Notes: generated from the letters alone by a model not told the origin. 64,000 nucleotides of DNA from Planctomycetota bacterium (GCA_043736295.1 JAYTCW010000164.1:223-64222), one strand, 5' to 3'; numbered from the stretch's first letter, positions 1,346 through 19,200 are shown. Numbers and translations are program-made.

Positions 1346-3220
1346 GTGTCGTTACTGGTGTCGTTGGTGTCCGCTTCTTCTCCCGCTGTCTCTGTGCAGT
1401 CTGCTGCTCCATCAGGTGCCTCGCCGCCGTCGAACTGGGTGCTGCTGCGCCGGTTGATTGCGATTGGGTTCGAGTACCGGCGCGGGTGCTTCGAGATGAT
1501 CGCGATGCACCTGGGGCTGGTGACGCTGACCTTGAGCGGGCTGGGACTGACGGGGCTGGGGATTGATTACATTCGGTCGGTGATTGAGCCGGGGAGTGCG
1601 GCTCCGACATGGCCGCTGGGACTTCGGCCTCCCACAAGCTGGACTCCCATGCAGGTCGTCATCGCCATCGCAGCGGCGGTGATGGCCTCCGGGTTGTTGA
1701 CGGCACTACTGAGGTACTTCGCAGCTTTGGCAGCGGCACGGCTCACGCAGCGGATCTTGTTGCGGTTGCGGTCCGATGTGTATGCCAAGCTGCAGCGGCT
1801 CAACTTTCACTTCTACGATTCCGGCGAGAGCAGCTCGATCATCAACCGGGCGGCGGGAGACGTGAACTCAGTCCGCAGCTTCGTCGACGGGGTCATCATT
1901 AAGGTGCTGTCGGTGCTGCTGACCCTGGCGGTGTATCTGGCATACATGCTGCGCGTACACGTGCCGCTGACGGTGGTGTGCCTGTGTACGACTCCGCTGC
2001 TGTGGTTTGGGGCCAGCCGGTTCTCTCGCATTGTGCAGCCCGCGTATCGGCGGGCGAGCGAACTCGGCGATGCGATGGTACGGACGCTGGTCGAGAACTT
2101 GCAGGGCATCCACGTCGTCAAGGGTTTCGCCCGCGAGCCCGAGGAGATCGAACGCTTCCGCCAGGCCAACGACGCCATTCAACACGAGAAGGAGTCGATC
2201 TTCCGCCTACTCAGTACGTGGCAGCCGACCATCGGGTTCCTCACCCAGATCAACATGCTGATCTTGATCGGGTATGGCGGCTGGCTGGTGATCCAGGGGG
2301 AGATGGCACTCGGATCGGGTCTGTTCGTGTTCGCCAATCTGCTGCATGAGTTCGCCAATCAAGTCGGTCAAATCACAGCTGTGGCGAACACGATCCAGGC
2401 GAGTCTGGTGGGGGCGCAGCGGGTGTTCGAGGTACTCGATTCGCCGGTGCAGATCGTCAGCCCGCCGGACGCGGTGACCTTGCCACGGGCGAGGGGAGAG
2501 ATCGCCTTCGACCATGTCACGTTCGGGTACAAGCCCGAGAGTCCCGTACTACGCGATGTGACGTTCACGATCCAACCGGGGGAGTGCCTGGCCATTACGG
2601 GGGAAACCGGTTCGGGAAAAAGCACGCTGCTGAGCCTCATCATGCGGTTCTACGATGCAGATCAAGGAGCGGTTCGGGTCGATGGCCACGAAGTGCGGGC
2701 ACTGGAGATCGACTCGCTGCGGCGGAACATCGGGCTGGTGTTTCAGGAAGCGTTCCTGTTCAGTCACACGGTGGCGGCGAACATCGCCTTCGGTCGACCC
2801 GATGCCACGGATGAGGAGATCGCAAGAGCTGCGCGAATCGCGTGTGCGGATCGGTTCGTGGAAGAGATGCCGGAGCGGTACGACACCGTTGTGGGTGAAC
2901 ACGGAGCGAACCTCTCGGGCGGCCAGCGGCAACGCCTCTCGATCGCGCGAGCTCTACTCCTCGACCCGCCGATCTTGCTGTTCGATGACGCGACCGCCTC
3001 CGTCGACCCCGAGACCGAACACGAAATCCGCGAGGCCCTCGAATCCGCCATGCAGGGCCGGACCTCGATCGTCGTCTCGAATCGGCTGAGTACGCTCCGC
3101 CGCGCGGACCGAGTGTTGATCCTGGAGAACGGCCGCATCTCCGCTATCGGGACACACGTGGACCTGATGCAGACGAGTCCGTATTACCGCCGTTTGGCCG
3201 AACTGCAATTCGGGTTGTGA
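1346..3220 (+). CDS. ABC exporter, fused permease + ATPase (MsbA/ABCB-like half transporter), without a C39 peptidase domain
   Basis: Hydrophobic N-terminal half, then Walker A GETGSGKST, signature LSGGQRQRLSIARAL and Walker B ILLFDDATASVD. The ORF starts at GTG 1346; the exact start is uncertain. Confidence 0.9.
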   Translation: MSLLVSLVSASSPAVSVQSAAPSGASPPSNWVLLRRLIAIGFEYRRGCFEMIAMHLGLVTLTLSGLGLTGLGIDYIRSVIEPGSAAPTWPLGLRPPTSWTPMQVVIAIAAAVMASGLLTALLRYFAALAAARLTQRILLRLRSDVYAKLQRLNFHFYDSGESSSIINRAAGDVNSVRSFVDGVIIKVLSVLLTLAVYLAYMLRVHVPLTVVCLCTTPLLWFGASRFSRIVQPAYRRASELGDAMVRTLVENLQGIHVVKGFAREPEEIERFRQANDAIQHEKESIFRLLSTWQPTIGFLTQINMLILIGYGGWLVIQGEMALGSGLFVFANLLHEFANQVGQITAVANTIQASLVGAQRVFEVLDSPVQIVSPPDAVTLPRARGEIAFDHVTFGYKPESPVLRDVTFTIQPGECLAITGETGSGKSTLLSLIMRFYDADQGAVRVDGHEVRALEIDSLRRNIGLVFQEAFLFSHTVAANIAFGRPDATDEEIARAARIACADRFVEEMPERYDTVVGEHGANLSGGQRQRLSIARALLLDPPILLFDDATASVDPETEHEIREALESAMQGRTSIVVSNRLSTLRRADRVLILENGRISAIGTHVDLMQTSPYYRRLAELQFGL

Positions 3221-3324: not shown

Positions 3325-5457
3325 TCATTGCGGGTCGACCAGTGCGCGGGTCCAGTCTCGCACGGCACTGGTTAGTTGCTGGGCAATCGTGCGGCGTCCA
3401 CTGAGTGGGGCGGCGCTGGCTTGTTGACCGGCGAAGACGTTAGAAGAAGCGGCGGCATCGAGCTTCGCTCGTAGCAGGAATCGCGGTTCGCTGAGCTTCA
3501 CGCCCTCGTCATCAGCGTCCGCCGAACTGGCGACCACATCGACCTCGCCGCCATGCACTGCGGATAACGCCGGGTGAGGTAATCGCGTCGAAGCTCGTGG
3601 TTCGAGAGACAGACTCGCCGAAGCCGCTGGGCCGGTCCCTCGAATACGCAGGTCAGCTGAGTGGATGTCGGCGACCGAGAATGCTTCCAGGTCGCGCTGG
3701 TCGACACTGGCGAGCACCTCTTTACGAGCATCATCACCAATCACCAGCAATTCGGTTCCCTCCTTGAGATAGTTCCCGATCTGCTGGTCGAGTCGGCGGG
3801 CCAGCACGCGCCCCGCCACGGGGGCCTTGATCGACAGAGCGTCGGTCCGGAGGTACGCCTCGGCGAGCTGTTCCTTGAGGGCTTGCTGATTGCGAAGTTC
3901 GATCTGTGCCAGCGCCAGTTCCTTGCGGTTGACCTGGCCAATTCGCTTCGCTTCGGATTGCTGGATGGCCAGTTCAAGGTCCGTGACGCGGGCGTTGAGT
4001 TCCTGGTTGTGCAGGATGACCAGCTCGTCACCGGCCTCGACGGTCTGCCCGTTGGTCACGAGGATCTCTTGAACGAATCCCGCGGAGGAGACTCGGACGA
4101 CTTCGAGGTCCGCATAGTCGACGATCCCCGGTGCGTGTCGTTGAAACGGACTCGGCAAGTGAAACACCAATGCTCCCACACACACCGCTGTCAGCGATCC
4201 CAGCAGCACCGCGCGACTGGCACTCCACCGATCGCGACGCCAGCGCGTCACCAGCGAGACCAGCAAATCAATCACCGGCTTCACGTACCACAGCAGTATC
4301 GCCCCGATCGCAATCGCCAAACCCGCCCCGCGAAACATCACAGCGGCCCCGGCGAGCAGCGAGGCCGAGACGGTGACTCGCCACATGGAGGAGAGCAGGG
4401 CGTAGCTGCGAATGACAGCTCCCTGGAACCCCGAGGGGACGGGAACGGCGCGTAGCTCTCCGTAGAAGAACCGAGCATAGCGGGACTGGAGCCAGCGGCT
4501 GGCGGTCGTGCTCAGGTTCGAGATATCGAGCAGGTCTTCGAGAATGAAATAGCCGTCGAACCGCATCAGCGGATTGATGTTGAAGATCAATGTCGTCAGG
4601 CTCGCGCTGACGACGATGTTGTGCAGCAAATGCCGCGCAAAGGGGGTCGTCGCTTGCGTCCAGCAGAGCGCCGCGATGGCGGCAACCGTCAGCTCGACCA
4701 GGATTCCTCCAGCGGCCACGTGCATCCGCTGCCAGCGCGAGCGAAAGCCAAGCGATGAGGTCACATCGACATAGGCCATCGGGGCGAACAGGACGAAGAC
4801 GACCCCCATCTCGGTCACGCGGCCCCCGTGAGAGCGGCAGGCCAGCCCGTGTCCGATCTCGTGGACCACTTTGAGCGCGACCCAGACGATCGCCAGCAGC
4901 AGCCAGTTGTGAGAGGAGAAGACCTGCCGCGAGTCGGCCCAGAACGCTTCGGCATGTCCCGCCAGGACGACACCCGCCGCGATCCACAGAGCGGCCATTG
5001 CCATGATCGCCGGGCCGGTGAAGAGCCAGCGAGTCCACGGTAGTAACAGGTCTAGTAGTCGCTCGGGGCGGAGCAGCGGGAGCTTCATCCAGAACGGATT
5101 GAACAGCGAACTGAGCGAGGCGAGCTTCGTAGTCGTGGACTCGATCGAGCCCTCGGTCGGAGTCGCGAGTCGGGTCTCGACGAGCCACAGGCAGATACTC
5201 GTTGCTTCCGACTCCGAGAACGCTTCGTGGCCAAGTGTCCGCGATGCAATCGTCACGGCCTCCGCCAGCGAGGTCCGCCCATCGAGCAGCGAGATTAACA
5301 CATATTCGGCTCGCCCCACTCGGTAAAACCGGACAGCGACCGGGTCTTCGAGTTGATATGACACCCCATCGACGGTCGGCACCGGTCGGACGATCACATC
5401 GTCCCGGAGTTTGAGCCGGGTCCGGTCGAGTTCACGGGTGCTGAGGTTGAGTTGCAT
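3325..5457 (-). CDS. PqqD-like N-domain / M50 site-2-protease membrane domain / HlyD-type adaptor fusion protein
   Basis: N-terminus FYRVGRAEYVLISLLDGRTSLAEAV...ICLWLVETRLA resembles PqqD/RRE. HEIGH plus NINPLMRFDGY are the two S2P/M50 motifs, set within multiple TM segments. The C-terminal half has split lipoyl-like halves around a coiled coil (GFVQEILVTNGQTVEAGDELV ... IKAPVAGRVLARR), as in membrane-fusion proteins. Confidence 0.8.
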   Translation of the reverse strand: MQLNLSTRELDRTRLKLRDDVIVRPVPTVDGVSYQLEDPVAVRFYRVGRAEYVLISLLDGRTSLAEAVTIASRTLGHEAFSESEATSICLWLVETRLATPTEGSIESTTTKLASLSSLFNPFWMKLPLLRPERLLDLLLPWTRWLFTGPAIMAMAALWIAAGVVLAGHAEAFWADSRQVFSSHNWLLLAIVWVALKVVHEIGHGLACRSHGGRVTEMGVVFVLFAPMAYVDVTSSLGFRSRWQRMHVAAGGILVELTVAAIAALCWTQATTPFARHLLHNIVVSASLTTLIFNINPLMRFDGYFILEDLLDISNLSTTASRWLQSRYARFFYGELRAVPVPSGFQGAVIRSYALLSSMWRVTVSASLLAGAAVMFRGAGLAIAIGAILLWYVKPVIDLLVSLVTRWRRDRWSASRAVLLGSLTAVCVGALVFHLPSPFQRHAPGIVDYADLEVVRVSSAGFVQEILVTNGQTVEAGDELVILHNQELNARVTDLELAIQQSEAKRIGQVNRKELALAQIELRNQQALKEQLAEAYLRTDALSIKAPVAGRVLARRLDQQIGNYLKEGTELLVIGDDARKEVLASVDQRDLEAFSVADIHSADLRIRGTGPAASASLSLEPRASTRLPHPALSAVHGGEVDVVASSADADDEGVKLSEPRFLLRAKLDAAASSNVFAGQQASAAPLSGRRTIAQQLTSAVRDWTRALVDPQ

Positions 5458-5520
5458 AGGGGTAGGGCTAATTCACCACGGAGACACGGAGGAGCCATGC
5501 CTGCCACACGAGATACTCTG

Positions 5521-5622
5521 ATCTGTGCTGATCTGTGAAATCTGTATACGGCCACTTCCACATGAACTGCTGAGTGCAAAGTTCAGTGAATTGGTACACA
5601 GATTTCACAGATTGACACAGAT
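5521..5622. promoter_or_regulatory. Inverted array of phased ATCTGTG heptads in an AT-rich intercistronic spacer (operator array or RNA hairpin)
   Basis: Left arm ATCTGTGctgATCTGTGaaATCTGT (5521-5545); right arm ACAGATttCACAGATtgaCACAGAT (5598-5622). 22 of 25 positions are complementary and the heptads are spaced 9-10 nt. By hand count, 5521-5640 has 47/120 G+C, against about 63% in the flanking CDS. Confidence 0.6.
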
Positions 5623-5667
5623 TTATTTTTCTGATGGATTGAGTCTTCACGGAGGTTACGCCAAGCA

Positions 5668-7545
5668 TCACCAGCCAATCCAGAATCGCACTTGATCGAT
5701 GGCCTTGTGGAACAGGTTCCAGCCCAAGGGGTGTTTCGCGGTCTCGATTTTGGCCCGCCCCTTCATGCCAGGGCGGAGGAGGCTGAACTCGTTGGCGAAC
5801 TTCACTTCGGCGACGAAGACGTAGTCCTCGTCGACGAGTTCTGATCGCGGATGAATCCGCTCAATCGTCCCCATCCAAGTCCGGTCGGGCAGGGCGTTGA
5901 GGACCGCCTCGACCGACTGGCCCACCACGACATGCCCGATGTCCTCTTCGGGGATGCTGATCTCCAGCACCATCTCTTCCAACGGGGCGATCTCGAACAG
6001 CGTCTGTCCCGTGGTGAGTGGGGCTCCCTCGGCTTTGCGGAGGTCGCCGCTGATGATGACTCCAGCAACTGGGCTGCGGATTTCGAGTTGCTCGCTGCGC
6101 TGGCGGAGGACGGTCGCCTTGGCGGTCATGCGGGCCATTTCGAGTCGCGACACCTGGGCCGCGTTGATCTCTTTCTCCGCTAGGTGCCCGTCGCGCTCTT
6201 TCGCCGCCCGGTCGACCTCAGCTGTGGCTCCGGAGAGTTCCCAGCGGATCTCCTCGCCGTCGAGGCGGGCGAGGACTTGCCCAGCTGTGACCTCATCACC
6301 GGGCTCGACATCAGCGTGCAGCAGTCGGGCGTCGAAGGGGGCAGCGATGTACCGCAGCGACACCGGGTGGACCTCGCATCCGCCCCGGACCGAGTAGGGG
6401 AACGGGACGCACAGACCCGCCGCCAGCAAGAGGCATCCCAGCGCGATCAGTTGGCCCTTGCGTTGCCGCATTGATTGGGAGACATGGCTCCAGGTTCTGG
6501 CGATCCGCCCTTGCTCCCCACGCCGCAAAGTGCGAAGTGCTGCACCCATCAGCGGGGCCGCAGCCTGCATAAAGCCCGCCGTGGACGCAACTTGATCCGT
6601 GTTGCTGACGATGGCGATCCAGGCCCCGACGGTCTCTCCCTCATGAGTTCTCAGTGGCACCGAGACGACCGACTCGGCATTCCAGCGCAGGGCCAACTGC
6701 TTATGAGTCGCCAGCGAATGCCGTGTCGCTCCCGCAGGAGGAGGCCAGATTCCGATCTCGCCGCGTAACAGACACTCATCGAGAGTTGCTTCAAGAAACG
6801 AGTCACGCTTCTCGGGTGAGACGTTCCCTTCACTGCGACTGACGGCGGTGAGGCGACAGCCGGGCTGGCCGGGGCGAACCAGCGCCACGGCCATCTGTTG
6901 CACTCTCAGATGACGAGATGCCTCATCGCACAGCACCTGTCCAGCGGTCGTGACGTCCGTCGCAGATTGGACTCGCGCCGCGAGATCGACAATCGCGGCT
7001 GTGGCGGACACCTCGCGATCGAGAGTGATCGCCCCGGCTCGAAGATCGAACATCGCCACAGTCGACACCGCGAGTTCGACCACAGTGGTCAGCACATCGG
7101 GCGGAGCGGAGGGAGCCAAGAAGAGCGCGAGCAGCACCTCCGGCAGTGGGCCCGTGGTGATCGGCACACTCACCAGCAACTGAGTCGGAGGACGGCCAAT
7201 TCGACCGGCTCGTGTCTGGCGGTCCTGACAGGCCGCCATGGAAAACTCGCGAAAGCTTTTCGTCGTTAGCTCAGGTAATCCGGCAATCGGATGCAGGATT
7301 CCGTCGAGAGCCACTTGACCCTGCGCATCGGGGCGACCAATCACGAGAATGTCGGCCCGTACCGTGTCGGTCAGGACTCTCGCGATTCGTGCAATCAGGT
7401 CAGCACGACCCGTAGACTGGGATGCCGCCTCACTGAAGCGGGCTTGCAGTGTCCGCAGTCTCTCCGTGTCGGGGCGTCGCTGTACGGCTGCGGCCTCGGG
7501 TGGAGTGCTGGTAGGCACGGGAGTGACCGGCGACGAAGAACTCAT
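5668..7545 (-). CDS. GAF-domain-containing HlyD-family adaptor (cytoplasmic sensor region + TM + membrane-fusion-protein domain)
   Basis: About 360 N-terminal residues show two GAF-like modules, followed by the TM segment LIALGCLLLAAGLCVPFPY. The MFP part includes LLHADVEPGDEVTAGQVLARLDG ... IRSPVAGVIISGDL ... RPGMKGRAKI. The start ATG overlaps the upstream stop (ATGA at 7542-7545). Confidence 0.75.
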   Translation of the reverse strand: MSSSSPVTPVPTSTPPEAAAVQRRPDTERLRTLQARFSEAASQSTGRADLIARIARVLTDTVRADILVIGRPDAQGQVALDGILHPIAGLPELTTKSFREFSMAACQDRQTRAGRIGRPPTQLLVSVPITTGPLPEVLLALFLAPSAPPDVLTTVVELAVSTVAMFDLRAGAITLDREVSATAAIVDLAARVQSATDVTTAGQVLCDEASRHLRVQQMAVALVRPGQPGCRLTAVSRSEGNVSPEKRDSFLEATLDECLLRGEIGIWPPPAGATRHSLATHKQLALRWNAESVVSVPLRTHEGETVGAWIAIVSNTDQVASTAGFMQAAAPLMGAALRTLRRGEQGRIARTWSHVSQSMRQRKGQLIALGCLLLAAGLCVPFPYSVRGGCEVHPVSLRYIAAPFDARLLHADVEPGDEVTAGQVLARLDGEEIRWELSGATAEVDRAAKERDGHLAEKEINAAQVSRLEMARMTAKATVLRQRSEQLEIRSPVAGVIISGDLRKAEGAPLTTGQTLFEIAPLEEMVLEISIPEEDIGHVVVGQSVEAVLNALPDRTWMGTIERIHPRSELVDEDYVFVAEVKFANEFSLLRPGMKGRAKIETAKHPLGWNLFHKAIDQVRFWIGW

Positions 7546-8468
7546 CGAACCTTCCCGACTTCCAATCGGCTGGTCTTGATCGGTGGCTTAGCCGTAGGTG
7601 CGGGAGCGGTACCAGCCTTGGGCGGGCCAGCGGTCTCGGCCCTCGGCAGTTCACCATTCACCACCAGCAGGCACTTCTCGCCGCTGCGATAGATGTTCTT
7701 CGAGTTCGGAACTCGCACCTTGATGAGAATCGTTCCGCTCTGAGCATCGATGACGGGAGCGATGTAGTCGACGACTCCCTTGGCGGGGAGACGTGTCTCT
7801 CCGACGAGCATGCTGACCTCGACGTTGGCCTTGAGTTCGTGGCTCAACACGGAGGGCACCGAGTAGATCGCGATCAGCGGGTCGAGTTGAACGACGGTCG
7901 CGATCACCGGATCGTTCACCGAGACGAACTCACCCACATCCCGGTGGACCTTGACGACGACTCCATCAATCGGCGAACGCACATTGCGTTGTTCGAGCTG
8001 GACCTTGATTCGGTCGTACTCTAAGCCTCGAATGAGCAGCTCCTCCTGCACGGCCAACAACTGGGCTTCGGAGACTTCCTTCTCGACCAGACAGCGGTCG
8101 AACTCTTCCTGTGTGGCATGCTTGCGTTCGAGCAACATCTTGAGTTTCTCGCCGCGTTCGGTCCGCAGGCGAATGTCTGCCTGTGCAGAGTTCACTCGCC
8201 CCTTGGCGTTACGACTCCGATCGGCGATCTCGAGCGTCGCATTGAGCAGAGTCTGGTCGAGGGTGCCGAGAATCTGATCCTTTTGGACTCGATCCCCCTC
8301 CTTGACGTTGATCAGGGAGACGATCCCGATATCGGTCGAGGCAACATCAAGATCGCGAAACGGCTCCGTGAAGCCTTCGATCTCGGCTGCCGAGACTGAG
8401 CCCGCCAGCAGGCAAGCAGCGAGTGCCGCGCAGAAACTCATTCGATTCTTGGTCGGTGTCATGTTCAT
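7542..8468 (-). CDS. HlyD/membrane-fusion-protein family periplasmic adaptor with signal/anchor sequence
   Basis: I chose the start at MNMTPTKNRMSFCAALAACLLAGSVSA (ATG 8468-8466), which overlaps the SecA-like stop by ATGA. Lipoyl-like halves are VSLINVKEGDRVQKDQILGTLD and VRSPIDGVVVKVHRDVGEFV, around a coiled coil. Confidence 0.8.
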   Translation of the reverse strand: MNMTPTKNRMSFCAALAACLLAGSVSAAEIEGFTEPFRDLDVASTDIGIVSLINVKEGDRVQKDQILGTLDQTLLNATLEIADRSRNAKGRVNSAQADIRLRTERGEKLKMLLERKHATQEEFDRCLVEKEVSEAQLLAVQEELLIRGLEYDRIKVQLEQRNVRSPIDGVVVKVHRDVGEFVSVNDPVIATVVQLDPLIAIYSVPSVLSHELKANVEVSMLVGETRLPAKGVVDYIAPVIDAQSGTILIKVRVPNSKNIYRSGEKCLLVVNGELPRAETAGPPKAGTAPAPTAKPPIKTSRLEVGKVR

Positions 8469-10381
8469 TCTCCGAGGAATATGGCGAGGATGGTGTCTCG
8501 CTGCAGGTCTTGGTTCAACAGGCTGTTTCGTAGTTGCGAGGCTTGGCGTTCGGTTTCGGCCTGGAGTTGTCTCAGTGCCGATGTGAGGTCCGTTCGGCAC
8601 TCCTGATCGTGCCCTGCGAGCTTGATGATGCGTGCGGACAGAGTCGGTCCGTGTTCGATAAGGAGATCGTCCTCCGCGGAGACGAACATCTGGGCCGATC
8701 CCGGTTGACCTTGCCGGGCCCCGCGTCCGATCAGCTGTCGGTCGACTCGATGCGAGTCGTAGGGCTCAGAGCAGATGACATGCAGACCGCCCACCGCCAG
8801 AGTTGCGGGGGAGGGCTTGATGTCGGTCCCGCGTCCGGCCATGTGAGTGGCGATGGTGATGGCGCGGAGCTGGCCAGCGGCGGAGACGATTTCGGCTTCG
8901 TCTTTGTCTTGTCGCCCGTTGAGTAGTTCGAAGGGGAGCTTTCGCTCTCGCAGGAGTGCGGCCAATCTCTCGCTATTCGCGATGGAGCGCGTGCCCACCA
9001 GGATCGGCTGCCCGGTCAGGTGCCGAGAGGCGACCTCTTCGGCAATCGCATTCCATTTGGCCTGAGCCGTCGTGAAAAACCGCGTCGTCAAGATGTCTCG
9101 CTGAGTCGGAAGTCGCAGCGGGATTGGCTGGACATCGACTCGGTAGATCGACTGGAACTCACTCTCACCACCGGTCGCGGTTCCAGTCATCCCGCTGAGG
9201 GTGCGGTAGAGCCGCAGGAATCGCTGGCGAGTAATCCGAGCGAGCGAACTCGTGTCCGGTGTGATCCGCTGGCCCTCTTTAGCCAGGACGGCTTGGTGCA
9301 ATCCATCACTCCAGGTGCGGTCGGGCATGATGCGACCGGTGGAGCCGTCAACGATCTGCACCTCGTCGTCGTGGACGATGTACTCACGGTCACGCTGGAA
9401 GAGCAGGCGGGCCTTGAGCGCCGCTTCGACATACAGTGCCCAGGGACGGATGAGCACTTGAATGGGGATTTGATCGACCGCCGAGTGAGTCTTCTCGCGT
9501 CCTTGATGTGTCAGACGTACCAGCCCGCGTGACGGGTCGAACTCGTAGTCGAGCTGCGGTGCGAATTCATTCGCCAGTCGGAGGGCCACGCGATGTGCTT
9601 CCGCATCGGGAGCATCTCCCGGGGCCGCCTCGCTGATCAGCAACGGCGAGATGGCGTCGTCGAGCATGACGTGATCGGCTTCGTCGACTATTGCGAAGTG
9701 GAGTCCCCGCTGCATCGTGACACGCGGAGAGAGACCGCCCGTCAGTCGCTGCCGCACCAGTACTCCGAGAGCTGCGGCTTTCACTTGCCGCAGCGATATT
9801 TGGTCGCGGAGGTAGTCGAACCCAAACTCGAAGCCATTCCCGTAGACCACATCGCAATCGTACAGAGGCCGCTTGACCTCCGCCGGAGCTTGCTCAGGGA
9901 GGACTGCAACCGTGAGCCCCAGCATTTCAAAGACTGGACGCAGCTCTTCGCAGTCACGCTCGGCGAGGTAGCTGTTCGAGGTCATCACATGGACGCCGCG
10001 ACCGCTCAGGGCATGGACAAACGCGGGCGCCGCACCGGTCAGGGTCTTGCCTTCGCCGGTGGCCATTTCGGCAATGGCTCCTTGGGCCAAGACGAGTCCC
10101 CCCAGGAGTTGAGGATCGTGCAGCGTCTTCCCGGTGACACGGCGGATCGCTTCGAGTGTGAAGGCGAAACCCGATTCGAGAACCTCGGGAGACTGCATAT
10201 CTCCGCCGGACTCGACGTTCTCGCGGAGTTGGATGGCATAGCCTCGAAGTTGAGTATCACTCAATGAAGTGAGTCGCGAGGCAACTTCGCGGATGCGCGG
10301 AATCAGCGCAGCCAGATTCTCCGATCGCCCAGGGCGTCGTCTGACATGCGATCGGTCTGGGGTTTGTTGCTCCAGAACCAC
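8465..10381 (-). CDS. Truncated SecA-like ATPase (motor domains + preprotein-binding domain, no wing/two-helix-finger/C-terminal tail)
   Basis: Collinear with SecA: LGGLVLAQGAIAEMATGEGKTL (Walker A), VHVMTSNSYLAERD, LHFAIVDEADHVMLDDAISPLLIS, LSGMTGTA, GQPILVGTRSI, ITIATHMAGRGTDI and GGLHVICSEPYDSHRVDRQLIGRGARQGQPGS. The protein ends about 90 aa after the last motor motif, at 638 aa total. GTG start at 10381. Confidence 0.85.
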   Translation of the reverse strand: MVLEQQTPDRSHVRRRPGRSENLAALIPRIREVASRLTSLSDTQLRGYAIQLRENVESGGDMQSPEVLESGFAFTLEAIRRVTGKTLHDPQLLGGLVLAQGAIAEMATGEGKTLTGAAPAFVHALSGRGVHVMTSNSYLAERDCEELRPVFEMLGLTVAVLPEQAPAEVKRPLYDCDVVYGNGFEFGFDYLRDQISLRQVKAAALGVLVRQRLTGGLSPRVTMQRGLHFAIVDEADHVMLDDAISPLLISEAAPGDAPDAEAHRVALRLANEFAPQLDYEFDPSRGLVRLTHQGREKTHSAVDQIPIQVLIRPWALYVEAALKARLLFQRDREYIVHDDEVQIVDGSTGRIMPDRTWSDGLHQAVLAKEGQRITPDTSSLARITRQRFLRLYRTLSGMTGTATGGESEFQSIYRVDVQPIPLRLPTQRDILTTRFFTTAQAKWNAIAEEVASRHLTGQPILVGTRSIANSERLAALLRERKLPFELLNGRQDKDEAEIVSAAGQLRAITIATHMAGRGTDIKPSPATLAVGGLHVICSEPYDSHRVDRQLIGRGARQGQPGSAQMFVSAEDDLLIEHGPTLSARIIKLAGHDQECRTDLTSALRQLQAETERQASQLRNSLLNQDLQRDTILAIFLGE

Positions 10382-10592: not shown

Positions 10593-12944
10593 TTACCAAC
10601 GTAGCCAGGAGCGACTCTTTGTGGGAGTCTCGCTGGTGCGCTGATCCTTCTTCTCTGGGGCCTTGGCCTTGGTGATCCCGGTCGACCGCGCGGGAACTTT
10701 GGGCTTGGTCAGCCCGGCCTGGGGAGGAATCAGTGTCTCCGCAGGAACCAGTGTCGGTTCGGGGTCAGAGGGAACCTCGACTTCGTATTTCAGCGGGTTC
10801 TCGAAAATCAACAGCGTGCCCATCGATCGCCGAACCCGAATCAACGCGATCGAGTACGACACCTGCGACTGGACGAACTCGCCTTCGGCATCGGCCAGCC
10901 GCTGCTGGGCATCGAGCAGATCTTCCAGCAGCAGGGTCGTCCCTCGGTCTGCACCGGGGAGCACCTTCCAGCGATCTTCGAGGTAACTCGACTCCGTCTC
11001 GGCGGCGATCAGTGCTTGGAATTTGCCGAGCATCTCGCGGTAGGAGGTCTCCGCCTCGCGGACAGAGAGTTCGACATCGGTTAGCCCGGTCTCCACAACC
11101 GTGCGGAAGTCGTAGACCGCTTTCGTCAATTCCCACTGCCGACGATCCTGGCGAGCTTTGGCCGCCCGGTTTCCGAGCGGCATCTCGAACTGCGTTCCCA
11201 CGGTGTAGCCCGGGCGACCGTCGGTATACTGGCTGCCGAGCGACTTTAGGATGTCATGATCGCCTTCCAGTCCCGCGACATAGGTGTTTAGCACCAGGTC
11301 GAGCTTGGGCAGGAGTTCGTTTTGAGACACACCGAGTCTCACTCCGGCCGCACGCAAGTCATGAACCGATTGCGAGATATCTGGGCGATACTGCAACGCA
11401 TTTTGAAGTGACCCCGCTAGCGACAAGGGCAGATGGTCGGTCCGCGGTGATTCGATGGGGACGAGTTCTGTCACTGAAAGATCGAGGTACTGAGGGGAGT
11501 TCACCAGCAGCCGCAAACGGGACTCGGCATTGCGAATCGCTGCTTGCGCTCGCACGATCTCCGAGCGACGACTGGCCACGGCTGCCTTCGCCCGATTCAC
11601 CTGTCGTTGCAAGGCGTCGATCTCTTCGCGACCACCAAGTGTTTCCAGGATGTACTGCGCACTGTCATAGACCTTGCGCCGCTGGAGATAGATTGCTCGC
11701 GAGCGGTAGAGGTCCCAGTACGTCTCGGTGACCTTCACTAAGTGATCTTGTAGCTCTTCCTGAACCACGTCAAACGACCTGTTGAGTTCGACTTGTGCCA
11801 GCACGATCCGTGCCTGGTTGTAGGCGACTCCTGATCCGTTCAGCAGTGGTTGGGTGTAGTTCAATTGGAGCCGACTGGTCCCTTGCGGGGCGGGAACGAA
11901 GAACTTGGAGTTGTTGTCCTGCCAACCCACCTTCTGCGAGATATCGAACTCGCCACCGTATTGATTCTTCCTACGGAGACCCGCTTGGACGGTGGCAATC
12001 TGTTCGACAAAACGGTTGGAATTATTCCCGGTCGTCAGCGTGTTCCCGACGGGGTCATTGAGATCACTCCATTTCGAATCGACAAACGTGGTCCAGTCGA
12101 AGGCAGCATTCTCCGCACTGAGAATGCTGTTGTTAATGTCGGGCTGGGTGCGGATTCCTAGAATCTGGGGAGAGTACTGCAGTGCCCCCGTCACGAGGGT
12201 GTCCACATCCACCGGGACTGTGGACTCGCTACGCCGGATCGGATTCGGCAATTCGTTGATCCACCACGGAACGTATCCGACCGGCAGCTGTGTCAGGTCA
12301 CCCGCTCGAACGTCCATGTCTTCTTCGACGGGAGACCGAGCCGCCCGGTCCTCGAACTCTGCTGTCCAGGGCAGTGCATCGGGATCTTGATTAGAGGGCA
12401 AGTACGGAGGGGCCAGTCCGGCAGCCTCCGACATCTCACTCGGCAGGTCACGGATCATGACCGGGACCACGCGAGCGTCAATCACTTCCCGAGGTGGCAA
12501 GGCCATCCGTTCCGGTTCTTGGTGACGGTCCCTCTTCTCAGTGGGGGGCAAACTCCGCTCGACTTTTTCGCTGGGCGGCGGCGGATCGTCCTCGTCGAGG
12601 CGTTCCACAACCGGCAGTTCCACTCGCTGGTCGTCCGAATCACTCGCCTGGGCGGGAAGTATTTCCGAGGTCTGCCTCGGGCGAACCGGAGGTCGCTTGG
12701 GAGCTGCACCGGTCCCCGGATACCCCAATCCGAGGGGGCGATTGGACGTGGCAGTCTTCCGACTGTGAGGTGTCGGAGCAGGAGCAGGTGCGTCGACCTC
12801 ATCCAAATCATCAAATACAGGTGCAAGTAACTGAATCACCGGCAGTTCTGGTGCCTGCGCTGGCTCACCCATCACGTGGGCTGCCATCCAGGCAGACGAC
12901 GTGATCGCGGCAGCAGTTGCAATCCATGCGTGGTGGCGTTCCAT
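10593..12944 (-). CDS. TolC-family outer-membrane efflux protein with a long Pro-rich N-terminal extension and a basic C-terminal tail
   Basis: Signal-like N-terminus MERHHAWIATAAAITSSAWMAAHVMG. About 200 aa are P/E/D-rich, followed by two OEP-type repeats (LQYSPQILGIRTQPD..., LQNALQYRPDISQSVHDLRAAGVRLGVSQNELLPKLDL...). Confidence 0.8.
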   Translation of the reverse strand: MERHHAWIATAAAITSSAWMAAHVMGEPAQAPELPVIQLLAPVFDDLDEVDAPAPAPTPHSRKTATSNRPLGLGYPGTGAAPKRPPVRPRQTSEILPAQASDSDDQRVELPVVERLDEDDPPPPSEKVERSLPPTEKRDRHQEPERMALPPREVIDARVVPVMIRDLPSEMSEAAGLAPPYLPSNQDPDALPWTAEFEDRAARSPVEEDMDVRAGDLTQLPVGYVPWWINELPNPIRRSESTVPVDVDTLVTGALQYSPQILGIRTQPDINNSILSAENAAFDWTTFVDSKWSDLNDPVGNTLTTGNNSNRFVEQIATVQAGLRRKNQYGGEFDISQKVGWQDNNSKFFVPAPQGTSRLQLNYTQPLLNGSGVAYNQARIVLAQVELNRSFDVVQEELQDHLVKVTETYWDLYRSRAIYLQRRKVYDSAQYILETLGGREEIDALQRQVNRAKAAVASRRSEIVRAQAAIRNAESRLRLLVNSPQYLDLSVTELVPIESPRTDHLPLSLAGSLQNALQYRPDISQSVHDLRAAGVRLGVSQNELLPKLDLVLNTYVAGLEGDHDILKSLGSQYTDGRPGYTVGTQFEMPLGNRAAKARQDRRQWELTKAVYDFRTVVETGLTDVELSVREAETSYREMLGKFQALIAAETESSYLEDRWKVLPGADRGTTLLLEDLLDAQQRLADAEGEFVQSQVSYSIALIRVRRSMGTLLIFENPLKYEVEVPSDPEPTLVPAETLIPPQAGLTKPKVPARSTGITKAKAPEKKDQRTSETPTKSRSWLRW

Positions 12945-13224
12945 GCCCGATGTGCCTTCCTTGGCCGGACCTCATCCGTCATCCATTGACGCGAGTTCTC
13001 AACGTTCCGTCCTTAGCTGCATCGACTTGATGATCGTCTGAAACCAGTCTCCGACGAGTCAAATCCTTTTTCAAGCTTTTGGCTGAGTTCGACGGTGTCA
13101 GGACTGTCAGAGTCGATGCGTTACCCATGATCGGGACACTGGGGAGACTCCGCACCGTCGATACAACCGCACCCCTGATACATCCGTTACGACACACAAG
13201 GTCACCCGCATTTGCCTCGCCACC

Positions 13225-16200
13225 ATGATCTGCAAACTAAGCTCTGTGCAGAACAGGCTTCCACTCGTCGATGGATCTCGCATGCTGACCGCATTACTTC
13301 GATGGATGAACCAATCTCGCAAGGATCAGCGAAAAACATCCGTCAACTCCTCGCGACTCCGTCAGTCGTCTGAGGAGTTGTACCGTCGCGCCTGTGACTT
13401 ACCACTTCCGCAGTCACTCCGGCAACTGTGGCAGGGAGAAATCCCTTCTCGTTCGTTACTCCTGGAATCGTTTGAAGATCGAGTGCTGTTCAGCGCAGCT
13501 CCTGCGCTGGCTCCCGCGCCGGTTGAGGTGGTGGTTGTGGCATCGCTTCAGGCCGTCGACTCAACGGCAGAACAAGTTCCAGCAATCATTCCCGAAACTG
13601 CTTCTGCCGCTGCAACAACGGACTCCATCGGAATACTGTCGAACACTTTAGACGCAGCTGATTCCGAGCAGACCGCAGCAGCGACACTCGTCGTCGTCGA
13701 CCCCAGCGTGCCGGATTACCAGTCGCTGCTCGACCAACTGCTGCTGCAGCAGTCTGGCCCGTTGGAGGTTCTGGTACTCGACTCGCAACGCGATGGACTG
13801 GAACAAATCGCCGAGCGACTGGCGCAGCTCGGCCAGACGCGGGCGATCCACATCTTGTCGCACGGCGATGAGGCTGGGCTGCATCTGGGCAGTAACTGGC
13901 TCAGTGCGGAGACCATCGCCATGCGAGCGAACACTCTCGCTCAGTGGCAGGGGTTGCTCACAGCGGATGCGGACGTGCTGTTCTACGGCTGTGATCTGGC
14001 GGCGAATTCGATGGGGCAGGAGTTCCTGCGGACGTTCGGCCAGCTGACCGGGGCCGATGTGGCAGCCAGCACCGACCCCACGGGAGCGGCCACACTGGGT
14101 GGGGATTGGAATCTGGAGTTCCAGTCTGGCTCGGTCGAGGCACGCTCCTTGGGCGAGTCGATGAACTTGTTCGAGTGGAACGGGCTGCTGACCACGAATA
14201 CTTATCAGCAGGGCGTGTCGAGCTACACGGGGACACAGGACACCACTATCAGTGCCTCAACACCGGGAACCGGTAATGGAGCATCGACCACCGTCACGAT
14301 CGGTGGAGCCTCGGCCAAAGCAGGCCTGATCCGATTTGACAGCTTGTTCGGGAATGGGCCAGGGCAGATTCCCCTCGGGTCGACGATCCACTCGGCCAGT
14401 CTCGGAGTCAACGTCACCACAGGAACGACGACGGAGTCCACGATCTCTCTGCATCGCGTACTCGCCAACTGGTCCGAAGCGTCGACGTGGACCAGCTTGG
14501 GAAGTGGGCTGTCTCGGGATGATGTCGAGGTCGCGACGGTGGCTGACTCGTTGGTGGAGAGTACCACCGCGACAGGGTTCCAGACGATCAAGGGACTGGA
14601 GGAATCGCTGCAAGCGTGGAGCGATGGCGAGGCCAACAGCGGCTGGGCTCTGTTTGGCGATAACGCCTCGGGTTGGACGTTCACCTCTTCCGAGGGAGCG
14701 ACATTGTCCCAGCGTCCGATGCTGATTGTGAACTACACTGCTCCCGTCGCCGTGGGCAGTCAAATCTCCACGACTGGTGAGGTGCGGGTCAACACGTCCA
14801 CGGCCAATACCCAATCGACAGCCACCAAGTCCCGCAACAGCCATGACGCCGTGGGCATTGACGCCCAGGGGAACACCGTCGTCGTCTGGACCAGCGACGC
14901 TCAGGACGGCAGCGGGGCCGGAGTCTACGCCCAGCGGTACAACGCGCGCGGCGTTCGCCTGGGGAGTGAGTTCCGGGTCAATGAGCAATCGGTCGATGAC
15001 CAGCACGGGGCTGCGGTGGCCATGAAGTCAGATGGCGGGTTCATCGTCACTTGGACCAGTGCCGGCCAGGACGGCAATGACCAGGGGATCTACGCCCGCA
15101 TCTTCGACTCACAGGGCAACTCTGCGAGTGAATTCCGCGTCAATCAAACGACCACCGGAGTTCAGCAGGCTCCCGCCATCGGTGTCGACAGCACCGGCAA
15201 CTTCGTGATTGCCTGGGAAGGGAATGGGGCTGGAGACAGTACCGGCATCTACGCCCGACGATTCCGAGCCAATGGCAACACGTTCGGCGGGGAGTTCTTA
15301 GTCAACACGGCAATGGCCAACACTCAAGCCGATGCGGCGATTGCTGTGGGCCAGGATGGCCAGTTCATGATCGTCTGGGATGACGCCATCGGGACACATG
15401 GTCGGAGATTCAACTCTTCCGGTGTGGCTCGGGATGCAAATGATCTCTTGTTGCACGCGGATTTCACCTCGGGGAACGCCGATGTCGCGACCAATGGAAC
15501 TGGGTCCTATCACATCGTCTGGAGAACAACTGGCAGCGGAGACGGGAGCGGCCGCGCTCTGTGGAAGATGGAACTGGGAGCCGTTGATACGATCCCCCCC
15601 CCCCCGGATCAGGTCACCACTTCAACGATTAACAGCCAGACTGAACCATCGATTACCAGTGATGGCAACGGCGATTTCCTCGTGACTTGGCAGGGGACCG
15701 GTCCGGGCGACACGGATGGCGTCTTCGCGAGGAAGTTCGATAGCGAAGGCACACCGCAAGGGGCCGAGTTCCGACTCAATGCCACGACCGCCGGGTCTCA
15801 GGTCTTCGTCTCGGCGGCGATGATCGATCTGGACAACTTCGTGGCGGTCTGGTCCGGCAATGGGACGGGGGATAACGCTGGGGTCTTTACGCGTGCCTAC
15901 GGCAACCTGACGACTGGCGACTCGCTGCTGTTCACGACGTGGAGTGATGTGAACTCGAGTGGGGCACCCGATCTGCAAAACTGGACCAAGGGGGATGTTG
16001 TCTCACTGGGCGATCCGAATCTCACCCTGGGCCCGAATGCCTCTGGCGCATTATCCATTGCGGGCAGCTTCAGTGCGATTGGGGACGGAGATGTGAAGCC
16101 GGAATCTCTGGATATCCTTCAGCATGACGTGCTGGTCGGAGCGGCGGGGAGTTCCGTACAACTCTACAAGGGCGATATCCTGTTTTCAGTCTTGGGCAAC

Positions 16201-19200
16201 GAGACCTTCGGAAGCCTCTCGGTGCAGACGGATGATGTCGTCGTCTTCCGTCCGGATGTCGTGGGGAGTTTCACCAGTGGGTCATTCTTCATCCTATTGG
16301 ACGGCCTCGAATCGATCGCGGGTGGGGCGATTGATTACCTGGCCGATGTCGACCTGATCGAGCAGACCACGCTCATCGGCGATGTCTTGTTACAGCCCGG
16401 CGACCTGGTGATCGCGGACATCGGCAATCTCGCCAGCTCGGTCGTCGTATTTCGCCCCACCAGCGTCGGGGCGGGAACGACCAGCGGGACCGTGACGACG
16501 TTGCTGAATGAGACCGAAATCCACCTCGATAAAGAAATCGTCGGAATTCAGGTGATCGAACGCGATACCGTGCTCGGGGGAGTCCAGCTGCGGCAGGGAA
16601 ACCTGATCGTGGCGGTCAACCTCAACAGCACTTTGGGAAGCAATGATCTCGCGGTCACGCTGCATGACGTGGCCCTGCTCGATGTGACCAAGACGAGCGT
16701 CAATGGTCCCGCGAACGTGACCGCCAGCATGCTGATCACCGGCTCTGATGTCTACCTCGATTCCGGCTCGGAAGCCGTTCGAAACCTGGCGCTGCTCTCC
16801 GTGCCGGGAGTCCCCCCGACCGTTCGCGATGAGACCTACACGCTGACCGAAGACGAGGTGTTCCACTCCGCGAATCAGTGGTACGACGCCAATTGGTCGT
16901 CGCGATTGCAACTGACGTTCGACAACTCGGCACGGGCGGAGAACCTGACCGACTTCCCGGTACTGGTGACCTTGGACTCGAATCGATTCGACTATGCCCT
17001 GGCTCAAAGCAATGGACAGGATCTGCGGTTCGTCGATGCCAATGGCCAGGTGCTTGCCTATGAGATTGAGACCTGGAACCCAGCCGGGCGCTCGGCGATC
17101 TGGGTCAAGGTGCCGCAGATTGATGCCAGCTCGAGTACCGATTCGATCTGGTTGTACTATGGCAATAGCTCCGCTCTGGCGGGCCAGAACCCGACCGCTG
17201 TCTGGTCGAATGGGTACGTGGGAGTCTGGCACCTGAATGGCGATCCATCGGGGACGCAGACGATCGCTGACTCGTCCTCCAGCAATGTCGATGGGACATC
17301 GATCGGAATGGATGCCACGAACCAGGTCAGCGGCCCCATCGGAGGGGCCTTGAAGTTCAACGGGGTGAACGAAGCGATTCGCGTGGCGACCACGTCGACC
17401 GATCCGACAGCTGTCGATCAGTCAGCACTGACGATCGAAGCCTGGGCGAACTCAACGGGCGACTCTGTGACAGCAGAGCGAATCATCAATCGTCGAAATA
17501 TAGTTTTCATCACGCCTTATGAATCGTATGGCTTGGCGACATCGTTCAGCGACCATACGCAAGTCGTCAACAGCACCGGGACACCAGATCTGACGGGTAC
17601 AACCGGTTCGCTCCCCGAAGACCGTTGGCGATACCTGACCGGTGTGCTTTCAGGTTCAACGTCCAGCCTCTACGTCGATGGGACGCTGAATGCGACCCAG
17701 ACAGGCGTGACCTCACTCGGGAGTAGTGACGACGATATCACCATTGGTGCCGGTGAGATGGGGTTCACGTCCACGCTCTCTCAATACTGGACCGGCGGCA
17801 TCGACGAGGTCCGACTCTCCAACGTCGCCCGCTCGGCGGCATGGACCGCCGCTCAATATGCGTCGATGACCGATACGCTGATTACCTATGGAGAGCGACA
17901 GACGGTCGCTGGGCTGCTGGACAATGATCAATCGGCGACCACGGGCGGCCTCGTTGTCACTAGCGTTGATCTCTCCGAGCTGACGGGAGTGGCCACAGCA
18001 CTGGTCCTCGACGATGGGCAGGTCTCATTCGTGCCTGGCGCGAGCTACCAGTCTCTCGCCGCAGGGCAGACTGTGTCGAAGGAGATCACCTATACCGCCA
18101 TCGACCAAAACGGAAACACGGACACCGCAACGGCCACGTTCGTGACTCACGGAGTCAATGATGCTCCAGTCATCAATACCGCAATCGGACCGCTGTCACT
18201 GTCCAGTGTGCTGGAGAACTCGACGAACCCACTCGGAAACACAGTCACGTCGATTCTGGCATCGGCAGGTGGCACGCTGATCACCGATGTCGACTCTGGA
18301 GCAGTGCGGGGGATTGCAATCACAGCTGTCGATACAGCAAACGGAACCTGGCAATACTCGCTCGATGGCACGACTTGGTCGAGCCTCACGGGAGTCAGCG
18401 ACACCAACGCGACTCTGCTCGACACCGCGTCTCGGCTGCGATTTGTCCCGACTGCTGGCTTCAGCGGAGCAGCGGGAGCAATCACGTTCCGAGCCTGGGA
18501 CCAGACCACTGGGACGAGCGCGCAGACCGGTGTCAATGTCTTAACAAATGGAGGCTCAACCGCCTTTAGCTCGCAAACCAGCACTGCGTCCATAACAGTC
18601 ACACCACTCAACACCCCTCCCGTAATCGTGACCAACTTCGGAATGACCGCTTTCGAAGGCAGTACAGCACTGTTAGGCAACACGCGACTGTCGGCGAGCG
18701 ATGTGGAGAACACCCCCACCCAACTGACCTATACGCTGACTGCATCGCCCACGAATGGCCGCATCGAACGAGTGGCAGCACCCGGCGTGGCGATCACGAC
18801 GTTCACACAGGCCGACTTGAACAGCAATGCGATCCGGTACATCCACGATGGCGGTGAAACCACCTCGGATGGTTTCAGCTTCTCGTTGAGCGATGGACTC
18901 GCTTCGGTCACCGGATCGTTCGCCATCACAGTCACTCCCGGAAACGACGCTCCGGTGGTTGCCGTGAATTCGAGCCTGACCGTCGTCGAAGGCGGGAACG
19001 GACTGCTGACGAATAGCAAGCTTTCGGCGAGCGATCCGGACAATACCGCTGCCCAACTCACGTACACGGTCAGCACGATCCCCGTGAATGGTCGCGTCGA
19101 GCGTGTCGCCGCACCGGGAATCACCATCACGTCATTCACGCAGGCCGAGATCAACAGCAATGCCATTCGCTACGTCCACAACGGTGGCGAGACCACTTCG

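Follow-up and report, generated by a model that had tools for sequence, protein, structure and literature searches.

A stretch of 64,000 nucleotides from a Planctomycetota bacterium (GCA_043736295.1, JAYTCW010000164.1:223-64222; the whole of it is called the window below) encodes a 638-residue SecA protein in which the preprotein clamp and both RecA-like motor domains are retained but the wing domain, two-helix finger and C-terminal tail are missing. Its gene sits in an operon for periplasmic adaptors and a TolC-family channel. Protein and locus belong to the "secondary SecA_DEAD" kind described from genome comparisons by Kamneva, Poudel & Ward (PLoS One 2015, PMC4452313), so that the truncated architecture and its neighbourhood have been known since 2015 and are not new here. 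What we add is a candidate cargo for these systems, for which we found no counterpart in the literature. Surveys run in both directions revealed a specific genomic link between the short-SecA system and giant genes of the LEPR-XLL/DUF4347 type, and the giant cadherin-repeat protein encoded next to the operon in the window is probably the cargo of the short-SecA system.

The short SecA and its family

The short SecA gene and the element that closes its product are located as follows.

8465..10381, minus strand: short SecA ATPase, 638 residues, made of nucleotide-binding domain 1 (NBD1), the preprotein cross-linking (clamp) domain and NBD2
8468..8584, minus strand: terminal long helix of the short SecA, residues 600 to 638, which occupies the place of the first scaffold helix of SecA and ends the protein

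A first-pass annotation of the window had described this open reading frame (ORF) as a SecA paralogue that retains motor and clamp and ends before the wing domain, the two-helix finger and the tail. The 638-codon frame was confirmed, and every motif string quoted for it is present in the translation. Pfam models for SecA_DEAD (residues 21 to 410, E 4e-84), for SecA_PP_bind, inserted inside the former (residues 263 to 365, E 7e-25), and for P-loop_SecA, which corresponds to NBD2 (E 3e-46), all matched above cut-off, and all hallmarks of the canonical motor were found: NBD1 and NBD2, the Walker A and B motifs, the arginine finger and the preprotein cross-linking domain. SecA_SW (PF07516) was sought with the whole protein at E<=0.01 and was not matched, even as a fragment. 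When the final 94 residues were scanned by themselves at E<=10, only the tail of P-loop_SecA was matched, and the idea of a SecA_SW remnant in the C-terminal helix was therefore rejected. Pfam did not find SecA_SW in any of the operon partner proteins either.

Residues 23 to 624 of the short SecA align to positions 17 to 601 of the 789 positions of the NCBIfam model PRK09200, and about 190 model positions are thus missing from the short SecA. In comparison with Bacillus subtilis SecA, residues 21 to 611 align to 20 to 583 of some 780 to 840 residues, with approximately 37% identity. The protein stops 76 residues past "...RQGQPGS", rather than about 90 as first estimated. An AlphaFold2 (AF2) model built on 61 family sequences (mean pLDDT 89.1, pTM 0.85) terminates in a single helix at residues 600 to 635, as assigned by DSSP. 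In Foldseek searches this model superposed best on the SecA chains of 5EUL and 6ITC, two substrate-engaged SecA-SecY complexes, with TM-scores of 0.85 to 0.86 and rmsd values of 3.2 to 3.4 Å. The domain scans came out as the first-pass annotation had predicted. Judged from its sequence, the short SecA would retain ATPase activity and would have lost its coupling to SecY.

Relative to B. subtilis SecA, members of the family share an NBD1 insertion of roughly 20 residues, at residues ~197 to 222 of the product (LRQVKAAALGVLVRQRLTGGLSPRVTMQRG). It is helical in the model, its L205-G206 pair is nearly invariant, and it could represent a family-specific docking surface.

The truncation is a property of the family. 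A search of 5.8 billion clustered proteins gave 120 listed homologues with 45 to 97% identity, almost all of them about 600 to 685 residues long and four of them shorter fragments. SecA_DEAD and SecA_PP_bind are present in all 120 and P-loop_SecA in nearly all, and PF07516 was detected in none. The homologues listed in this identity range are all short, and canonical SecA lies at about 37% identity. Among 61 aligned members the GEGKT (Walker A), DExD and GRGTD motifs and arginines 553 and 556 are invariant, as are Q607 and R618 of the terminal helix. In 35 of the 36 SecA-like ORFs found in the locus surveys described below, which include copies from Brocadiia and one from a gammaproteobacterium, the C terminus lies 1 to 19 residues beyond the end of the family profile; the exception, in locus L025, is frameshifted by its look. 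The stop codon TGA of the gene overlaps the ATG of the adaptor gene that follows ("gaATGAacatg"), as the first-pass annotation had noted, and the M50-HlyD protein encoded beside the short SecA is identical on five contigs from separate samples. Assembly truncation or frameshifting of a full-length secA was rejected because the end point is conserved throughout the family and the next gene begins at the stop; the truncation is genuine.

Operon partners and relation to known systems

The operon runs on the minus strand in the order OEP, short SecA, lipoprotein adaptor, GAF-HlyD and M50-HlyD. The partners of the short SecA gene are:

10593..12944, minus strand: TolC/OEP-family channel in the outer membrane, 783 residues, first gene of the operon; Pfam OEP in two stretches, E 2e-19
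7542..8468, minus strand: periplasmic adaptor (membrane-fusion protein) of the lipoprotein type; Pfam HlyD_3 and HlyD_D23
5668..7545, minus strand: GAF-HlyD inner-membrane adaptor, 625 residues; Pfam HlyD_D23 and HlyD_3
3325..5457, minus strand: M50-HlyD fusion, 710 residues; Pfam Peptidase_M50 (site-2-protease-like) joined to an HlyD-type adaptor

The OEP protein also matches the TolC and NodT subfamily models of NCBIfam, below cut-off. The OEP repeats are preceded by an N-terminal extension of roughly 250 residues that is rich in Pro, Ala and Glu (15% Pro), and the C-terminal tail is Lys/Pro-rich; the OEP-like ORFs of related loci range from about 580 to 1070 residues. The periplasmic adaptor scores 116.8 bits against the NCBIfam model RND_mfp, above the cut-off of 94.9. 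As read from the sequence, it opens with a lipoprotein-type signal peptide ending in ...AALAAC and is probably a lipoprotein. The GAF-HlyD protein is composed of a cytoplasmic GAF-like N-terminal region, with a weak GAF_2 match at residues 195 to 337 (E 2e-4, below cut-off), one transmembrane segment at residues 366 to 384, and a periplasmic HlyD part. Its gene adjoins that of the M50-HlyD protein in 82 of the 85 M50-HlyD-positive loci among the 86 surveyed.

In the M50-HlyD protein, the HExxH motif (H199, E200, H203) and the NxNPLMxFDG motif (residues 293 to 302) are invariant in 60 sequences, and the protease site therefore looks intact. The AF2 model (pLDDT 84.2) comprises a small cytoplasmic domain at residues 14 to 100, a helical membrane core at residues 132 to 433 and a periplasmic part. 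A Foldseek search with the whole chain returned adaptor proteins only, the periplasmic half being matched by MexA, AcrA, MacA and EmrA, which dock on TolC-type channels. The cytoplasmic domain has a beta-beta-beta-alpha-alpha-alpha order in the model and gave nothing significant in Pfam or in a profile search of PDB sequences. Its identification as a leader-binding domain of the PqqD/RRE type was unsupported: the order of secondary structures fits, and there is no sequence similarity.

This locus matches every element of the 2015 description. Secondary SecA_DEAD proteins are defined by the presence of SecA_DEAD and by a SecA_SW that is absent or reduced to a small fragment, as in the short SecA. 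Their genes occur with HlyD, Peptidase_M50-like HlyD and GAF-HlyD genes and often with OEP genes (PMC4452313); here all of these stand in one operon, and the arrangement recurs in 35 surveyed loci. Domains, neighbours and phylum are the same, and the SecA-like protein itself is no different from those already described. A locus of Methylobacterium extorquens AM1 (META1p2399-2402) is also named in PMC4452313. The 2015 phylogeny grouped such proteins in a multi-phylum clade apart from canonical SecA and adjoining actinobacterial SecA2. Genomes of cultured relatives are reported to encode a canonical full-length SecA besides the secondary protein (PMC4452313); the 64-kb window holds no second SecA. 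In the authors' proposal, the SecA-like protein takes the place of the ABC ATPase in a type-I-like system whose membrane part is supplied by the M50 protein; they stated that the biological role was unknown. The substrate, cadherin-type giant genes, DUF4347 and the LEPR motif are unmentioned in that paper, as determined by a term search. In the literature that we searched no function or substrate is reported for the family, and beyond PMC4452313 and a preprint on Omnitrophota discussed below nothing further was found on the family, on LEPR-XLL or on a link with DUF4347. The view of the first-pass annotation, that a SecA paralogue has been repurposed together with its operon partners, gains support from the domain content, from the predicted structure and from the conservation of the operon.

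The short SecA shares NBD1, the clamp, NBD2 and the ATPase motifs with canonical SecA (TIGR00963/PRK12904; structures 1M6N, 3DIN, 5EUL and 6ITC), from which it differs by the loss of most of the scaffold, the wing, the two-helix finger and the C-terminal tail, and by its place in an adaptor/TolC operon. It misses the cut-offs of both canonical models, with 543.0 versus 800 bits for TIGR00963 and 541.0 versus 814 for PRK12904. Those of the accessory SecA2 models are missed as well (TIGR04221, 415.7/725 bits; TIGR03714, 444.1/930; TIGR04397, 534.2/1085; NF012136, 385.6/1100). The SecA2 proteins of Gram-positive bacteria, of some 760 to 790 residues, keep the scaffold and the two-helix finger. 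Like the short SecA, they are non-housekeeping proteins for special substrates, and they share 32 to 37% identity with it (structures 4UAQ and 6SXH); the SecA2 chains matched have 778 to 786 residues, versus 638 here. Neither SecY2 nor the Asp proteins of SecA2 systems are encoded in the operon, whose other members are OEP, adaptor, GAF-HlyD and M50-HlyD only.

Escherichia coli SecA-N68 is an engineered C-terminal truncation with deregulated ATPase activity and no translocation activity. Its domain content, motor and clamp, is nearly equal to that of the short SecA (PDB 5K9T; Foldseek TMt 0.67), which in contrast is a natural, conserved gene product with partners of its own. A parallel case is that of the giant proteins of Omnitrophota with fused SecA_DEAD and PP_bind domains and no wing or scaffold, reported by West-Roberts et al. 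(bioRxiv 10.1101/2023.11.21.568195), who suggest that the fused SecA modules help to export the giant protein itself, a normal SecA coexisting with them. In Omnitrophota the motor forms part of the giant protein and lies next to transmembrane regions, whereas here it is a separate 638-residue operon protein.

Linkage to giant LEPR-XLL/DUF4347 genes

A giant gene that begins 280 bp upstream of the OEP gene is transcribed divergently from the operon and has the following features.

13225..24291, plus strand: candidate cargo, giant repeat protein of 3688 residues
13456..13521, plus strand: LEPR-XLL-type N-terminal motif of the cargo, residues 78 to 99, SLLLESFEDRVLFSAAP; NCBIfam NF012209
13687..14190, plus strand: DUF4347 of the cargo, residues 155 to 322; Pfam, E 1e-50
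24040..24288, plus strand: C-terminal hydrophobic block and acidic tail of the cargo, last 83 residues, SLTVGYVVWMLRGGLLITSLLAQVPAWSIVDP

Pfam assigned DUF4347, DUF2341, Laminin_G_3, 14 stretches of Cadherin_3 and Big_9 to the protein. NF012209, which models the LEPR-XLL motif of roughly 24 residues, scored 18.4 bits against a cut-off of 17 and was the only model to match the N terminus in Pfam and NCBIfam scans of the N- and C-terminal regions. The same model matched 8 of 10 other cargo N termini, with scores above cut-off in 3 cases. The cargo N termini contain no classical hydrophobic signal peptide, including the segment upstream of the LEPR-XLL motif in the window protein.

We determined whether such genes accompany the system elsewhere from surveys in both directions. 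For the forward survey, relatives of the M50-HlyD protein were collected from one genome per species (185,579 species) with 10 kb on each side, which returned 80 loci; with earlier loci and the window, 86 loci (numbered with the prefix L) were analyzed by scoring six-frame ORFs with family profiles. The 80 loci are mostly from Planctomycetota, including the cultured strains Stieleria marina (two loci), Rubripirellula obstinata and Rhodopirellula maiorica. Other hosts include Arenicella, Beggiatoa, Thiotrichales, Ca. Venteria, a Chthoniobacteraceae metagenome-assembled genome (MAG) and a Desulfobulbus MAG. A short SecA is encoded in 35 of the 86 loci. In 28 of these 35 it is accompanied by an OEP gene and by a large ORF that contains DUF4347, the LEPR motif or both; of the remaining seven, at least three (L025, L057 and L064) are interrupted by the end of a contig. 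Searching with a regular expression for the LEPR motif gave 37 matches in 1.51 million residues of six-frame ORFs and none in the reversed sequences. All 37 fall within the first 130 residues of a large ORF beside the operon, mostly at 250 to 860 bp from the OEP gene.

The first five contigs fetched for short SecA homologues (L001 to L005) all have a large motif-bearing neighbour, which contains DUF4347 in three cases. One of them (L003) belongs to an assembly labelled eukaryotic; the gene call there did not translate to the query, but six-frame analysis uncovered the full operon and cargo. In the Arenicella (Gammaproteobacteria) locus L060, the short SecA gene is followed by that of a DUF4347 protein with the motif LLLNLESRMMFDGAAP; the link thus reaches beyond Planctomycetota.

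The reverse survey started from DUF4347 alone and comprised 80 metagenome loci, 31 of which have at least 8 kb upstream of the DUF4347 ORF. A short SecA is present in 14 of these 31 well-flanked loci and parts of the system in 18; over all 80 loci, 27 contain a short SecA. In a second common layout in this set, the giant gene directly follows the short SecA gene and is read from the same strand. By our rough estimate, with one or two short SecA genes per genome, a random stretch of 10 to 20 kb would hold one well under 1% of the time. The association of short SecA and giant genes is therefore strong in both directions. In the Pirellulaceae locus L085, two SecA-like genes (4599-6866 and 12494-14563) flank a single GAF-HlyD/M50-HlyD pair.

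In L002 (1-7245) and L005 (4803-6449), the neighbour with the LEPR-type motif is a DUF7948/SBBP/pentaxin/cadherin giant devoid of DUF4347, showing that what the neighbours have in common is the N-terminal motif and not DUF4347. As for DUF4347 itself, H63-G64 (SHG) and Y104-G105-C106 (YGC) are invariant in 11 diverse sequences. These residues are set in an alternating strand/helix pattern and resemble the His/Cys dyad of clan-CD (caspase-like) cysteine proteases. From this pattern, DUF4347 might be a self-processing protease.

The other end of the candidate cargo is also distinctive. Its C-terminal block follows the pattern GYVxWxxRGGxLxxSxxxxxPxWxxxDPLP, with the acidic tail next to it, and no Pfam or NCBIfam model matches it. 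Six other large neighbour ORFs have their C terminus inside the locus; the block recurs in five of them (L004, L009, L029, L069 and L082) and was not found in the sixth (L067). A search of 1.84 billion representative proteins retrieved it in 3105 proteins at E<=1e-3. It lies at the extreme C terminus in all 150 of the matches listed, often in proteins of 2000 to 4700 residues, and one match is a 4116-residue protein equal in length to the L001 neighbour. On the basis of its sequence and position, the block looks like an undescribed anchoring or sorting domain.

Proposed export route and its alternatives

Our preferred reading, which we hold with moderate confidence, is that the giant protein is exported by a type-I-like apparatus spanning the envelope, with the short SecA as its ATPase. 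We infer its ATPase activity, its docking to the HlyD-fusion proteins instead of SecY, the direction of transport, the identity of the cargo and the substrate of the protease. According to this model, the short SecA would bind the non-classical N-terminal leader of the cargo and clamp the unfolded chain, and ATP cycles would push the cargo from N to C terminus into an inner-membrane portal made of M50-HlyD and GAF-HlyD. The chain would then pass through the adaptor tunnel and the TolC-like channel, and the intact M50 active site would process either the leader of the cargo or its C-terminal hydrophobic block.

A functional parallel is the export of giant adhesins by type I systems (LapA-LapBCE, HlyBD-TolC), which likewise place an adaptor and a TolC-family channel beside a giant repeat adhesin. 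Two parts of a type I system, a periplasmic HlyD/membrane-fusion adaptor and a TolC-family channel, are indeed encoded in the operon. However, no ABC transporter gene, the energiser of type I secretion, is found in it, and a SecA-type ATPase is present instead. Type I substrates typically carry an uncleaved C-terminal signal and RTX or GG repeats. In contrast, the candidate signal here is the N-terminal LEPR-XLL motif, and RTX models, which would indicate a type I C-terminal secretion signal, did not match the candidate cargo. There are also three adaptor-type proteins in this locus, one of them fused to an M50 intramembrane protease.

Several observations weigh against the proposed route. None of the operon proteins is an obvious protein-conducting inner-membrane channel in the domain scans. 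In the forward survey, 38 loci contain the M50-HlyD/GAF-HlyD pair only, and in 13 loci a cargo marker is present while the fetched stretch lacks a SecA-like gene; at least four of the latter (L032, L043, L054 and L063) combine the giant gene with OEP, adaptor, GAF-HlyD and M50-HlyD and have no ATPase gene of any kind. The existence of operons that are complete except for the SecA-like gene shows that the short SecA is not obligatorily linked to the system, and it may be dispensable there. It may also act in trans on such operons; one MAG (MFD09964.bin.2.83) harbors both a SecA-containing locus, L025, and a SecA-less one, L032. In the reverse survey, 13 of the 31 well-flanked DUF4347 loci have no system parts within 10 kb, five of the 13 being one contig recovered from different samples. 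The C-terminal block could equally mean that the cargo is anchored in the inner membrane and not secreted. No experimental study of the secondary SecA_DEAD family was found in the later literature. Lastly, an ABC exporter gene that is convergent with the M50-HlyD gene could encode the real energiser at this locus:

1346..3220, plus strand: half-size ABC exporter, MsbA/HlyB-like; Pfam ABC_membrane and ABC_tran

This protein falls below all NCBIfam cut-offs and its N-terminal 100 residues have no family match. It was rejected as a conserved core component, being near the system in only 4 of the 86 surveyed loci.

The alternative that survives best, although we consider it improbable, is a two-step route in which the short SecA, alone or with canonical SecA, delivers the giant protein to SecYEG and the HlyD/TolC parts complete export. 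Actinobacterial SecA2 works at the housekeeping SecYEG channel and MacAB-TolC takes periplasmic substrates, so that both steps have precedents. The clamp and both NBDs are fully SecA-like, the model superposes best on SecY-bound SecA, and the lack of an obvious channel in the operon and the existence of SecA-less operons would be readily accommodated. The position of the clade beside actinobacterial SecA2 in the 2015 phylogeny (PMC4452313) points the same way. However, the short SecA lacks the two-helix finger, the wing domain and most of the scaffold, elements that make much of the contact with SecY in SecA-SecY structures. Moreover, the cargo has no classical signal peptide, no secY2-like gene is near, and the short SecA gene is embedded among, and translationally coupled to, adaptor genes, all of which weighs against the two-step route.

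More doubtful is the possibility that the short SecA is a cytoplasmic unfoldase, holdase or targeting factor, which would use its clamp and ATPase to prevent folding of the very long nascent cargo or to bring it to the membrane complex, and that transport is driven by another source of energy, such as the ABC exporter or the proton-motive force. The loss of the SecY-coupling elements and the operons without a SecA-like gene would be consistent with such a role, as would the adjacency of the ABC exporter to the operon, here and in L004 and L086-L088. Yet its presence near only 4 of 86 loci indicates that this exporter is not a conserved partner of the system, and no ATPase gene other than that of the SecA-like protein recurs within the operon.

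We give little weight to a third alternative, in which the substrate that the system matures and exports is not giant, for instance a small ribosomal peptide, the M50 domain acts as leader peptidase, as in YydH or daptide systems, and the giant gene is only a frequent neighbour. It draws on the best NCBIfam match of the M50-HlyD protein, the daptide intramembrane metalloprotease model daptide_HExxH (E 7e-45), on additional matches to YydH/LiaK, and on the layout of the N-terminal domain, which is like that of leader-peptide-binding domains. Nevertheless, the daptide and YydH matches are far below cut-off (153.7 versus 300 bits for daptide_HExxH), the N-terminal domain does not resemble PqqD/RRE proteins in sequence, and the operon contains no conserved small precursor gene or modification enzyme. 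The link to giant LEPR-XLL/DUF4347 genes is, in addition, specific in both directions. As for the stop at 8465-8467 being a sequencing or assembly error, or the gene a recent truncation of full-length secA, nothing was found in its favour, and this reading is already refuted by the conservation data (the shared end point in several phyla, the SecA_SW-less homologues, almost all of about 600 to 685 residues, the invariant ATPase motifs, the start of the next gene at the stop codon and the identical M50-HlyD protein on five contigs) and deserves practically no credence.

The export model, with the short SecA as its ATPase, can be extended by the genes that lie just downstream of the cargo gene:

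24288..26936, plus strand: hybrid histidine kinase (PAS-HisKA-HATPase-REC-Hpt; Pfam)
27079..28314, plus strand: response regulator with an HD-GYP domain (Response_reg and HD_5; HHERYDGTGYP in the translation)

HD-GYP domains are of the cyclic di-GMP (c-di-GMP) phosphodiesterase type. A hybrid histidine kinase gene also follows the cargo gene in L004, and these two proteins are possible regulators of the system, their membership being uncertain. PilZ-domain genes adjoin the SecA-like gene in L002 (11910-12587) and L005 (12471-13139), and L002 also encodes an HD/GGDEF response regulator (16041-18353). The recurrence of second-messenger genes hints at control of the system by c-di-GMP.

LapA secretion is under the control of LapD and LapG. 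The likeness to that system extends to a dedicated protease and to second-messenger genes nearby (GAF and HD-GYP here, PilZ in L002 and L005). We therefore put forward, as a tentative extension only, a distinct pathway for giant surface proteins in which a SecA-type motor replaces the ABC transporter, the LEPR-XLL motif is recognized, the C-terminal block provides a tether, the M50 protease performs release or maturation, and GAF and c-di-GMP exert control. The cargo would be threaded from N to C terminus across both membranes and held by its C-terminal block, until the M50 domain releases or matures the tethered protein. The GAF domain and the c-di-GMP genes (HD-GYP, PilZ) would control release, which would make the pathway a functional mirror image of LapA/LapG/LapD.

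As the truncated SecA is a further member of the family described in 2015, the value of this locus lies in the function of the family and in the candidate cargo class. That class, defined by LEPR-XLL, DUF4347 and the C-terminal block, makes the function of the family directly testable, and experiments are feasible because the locus occurs in cultured strains (Stieleria marina, Rubripirellula obstinata and Rhodopirellula maiorica). If the proposed route is correct, a SecA motor would work without the two-helix finger and without SecY, and a type-I-like tunnel would be powered by an ATPase that is not an ABC protein. The LEPR-XLL motif, carried by every surveyed neighbour gene, would then be an export signal. 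With the C-terminal block present in more than 3000 clusters, and with the Omnitrophota fusions, SecA-type motors would be a general means of exporting giant proteins.

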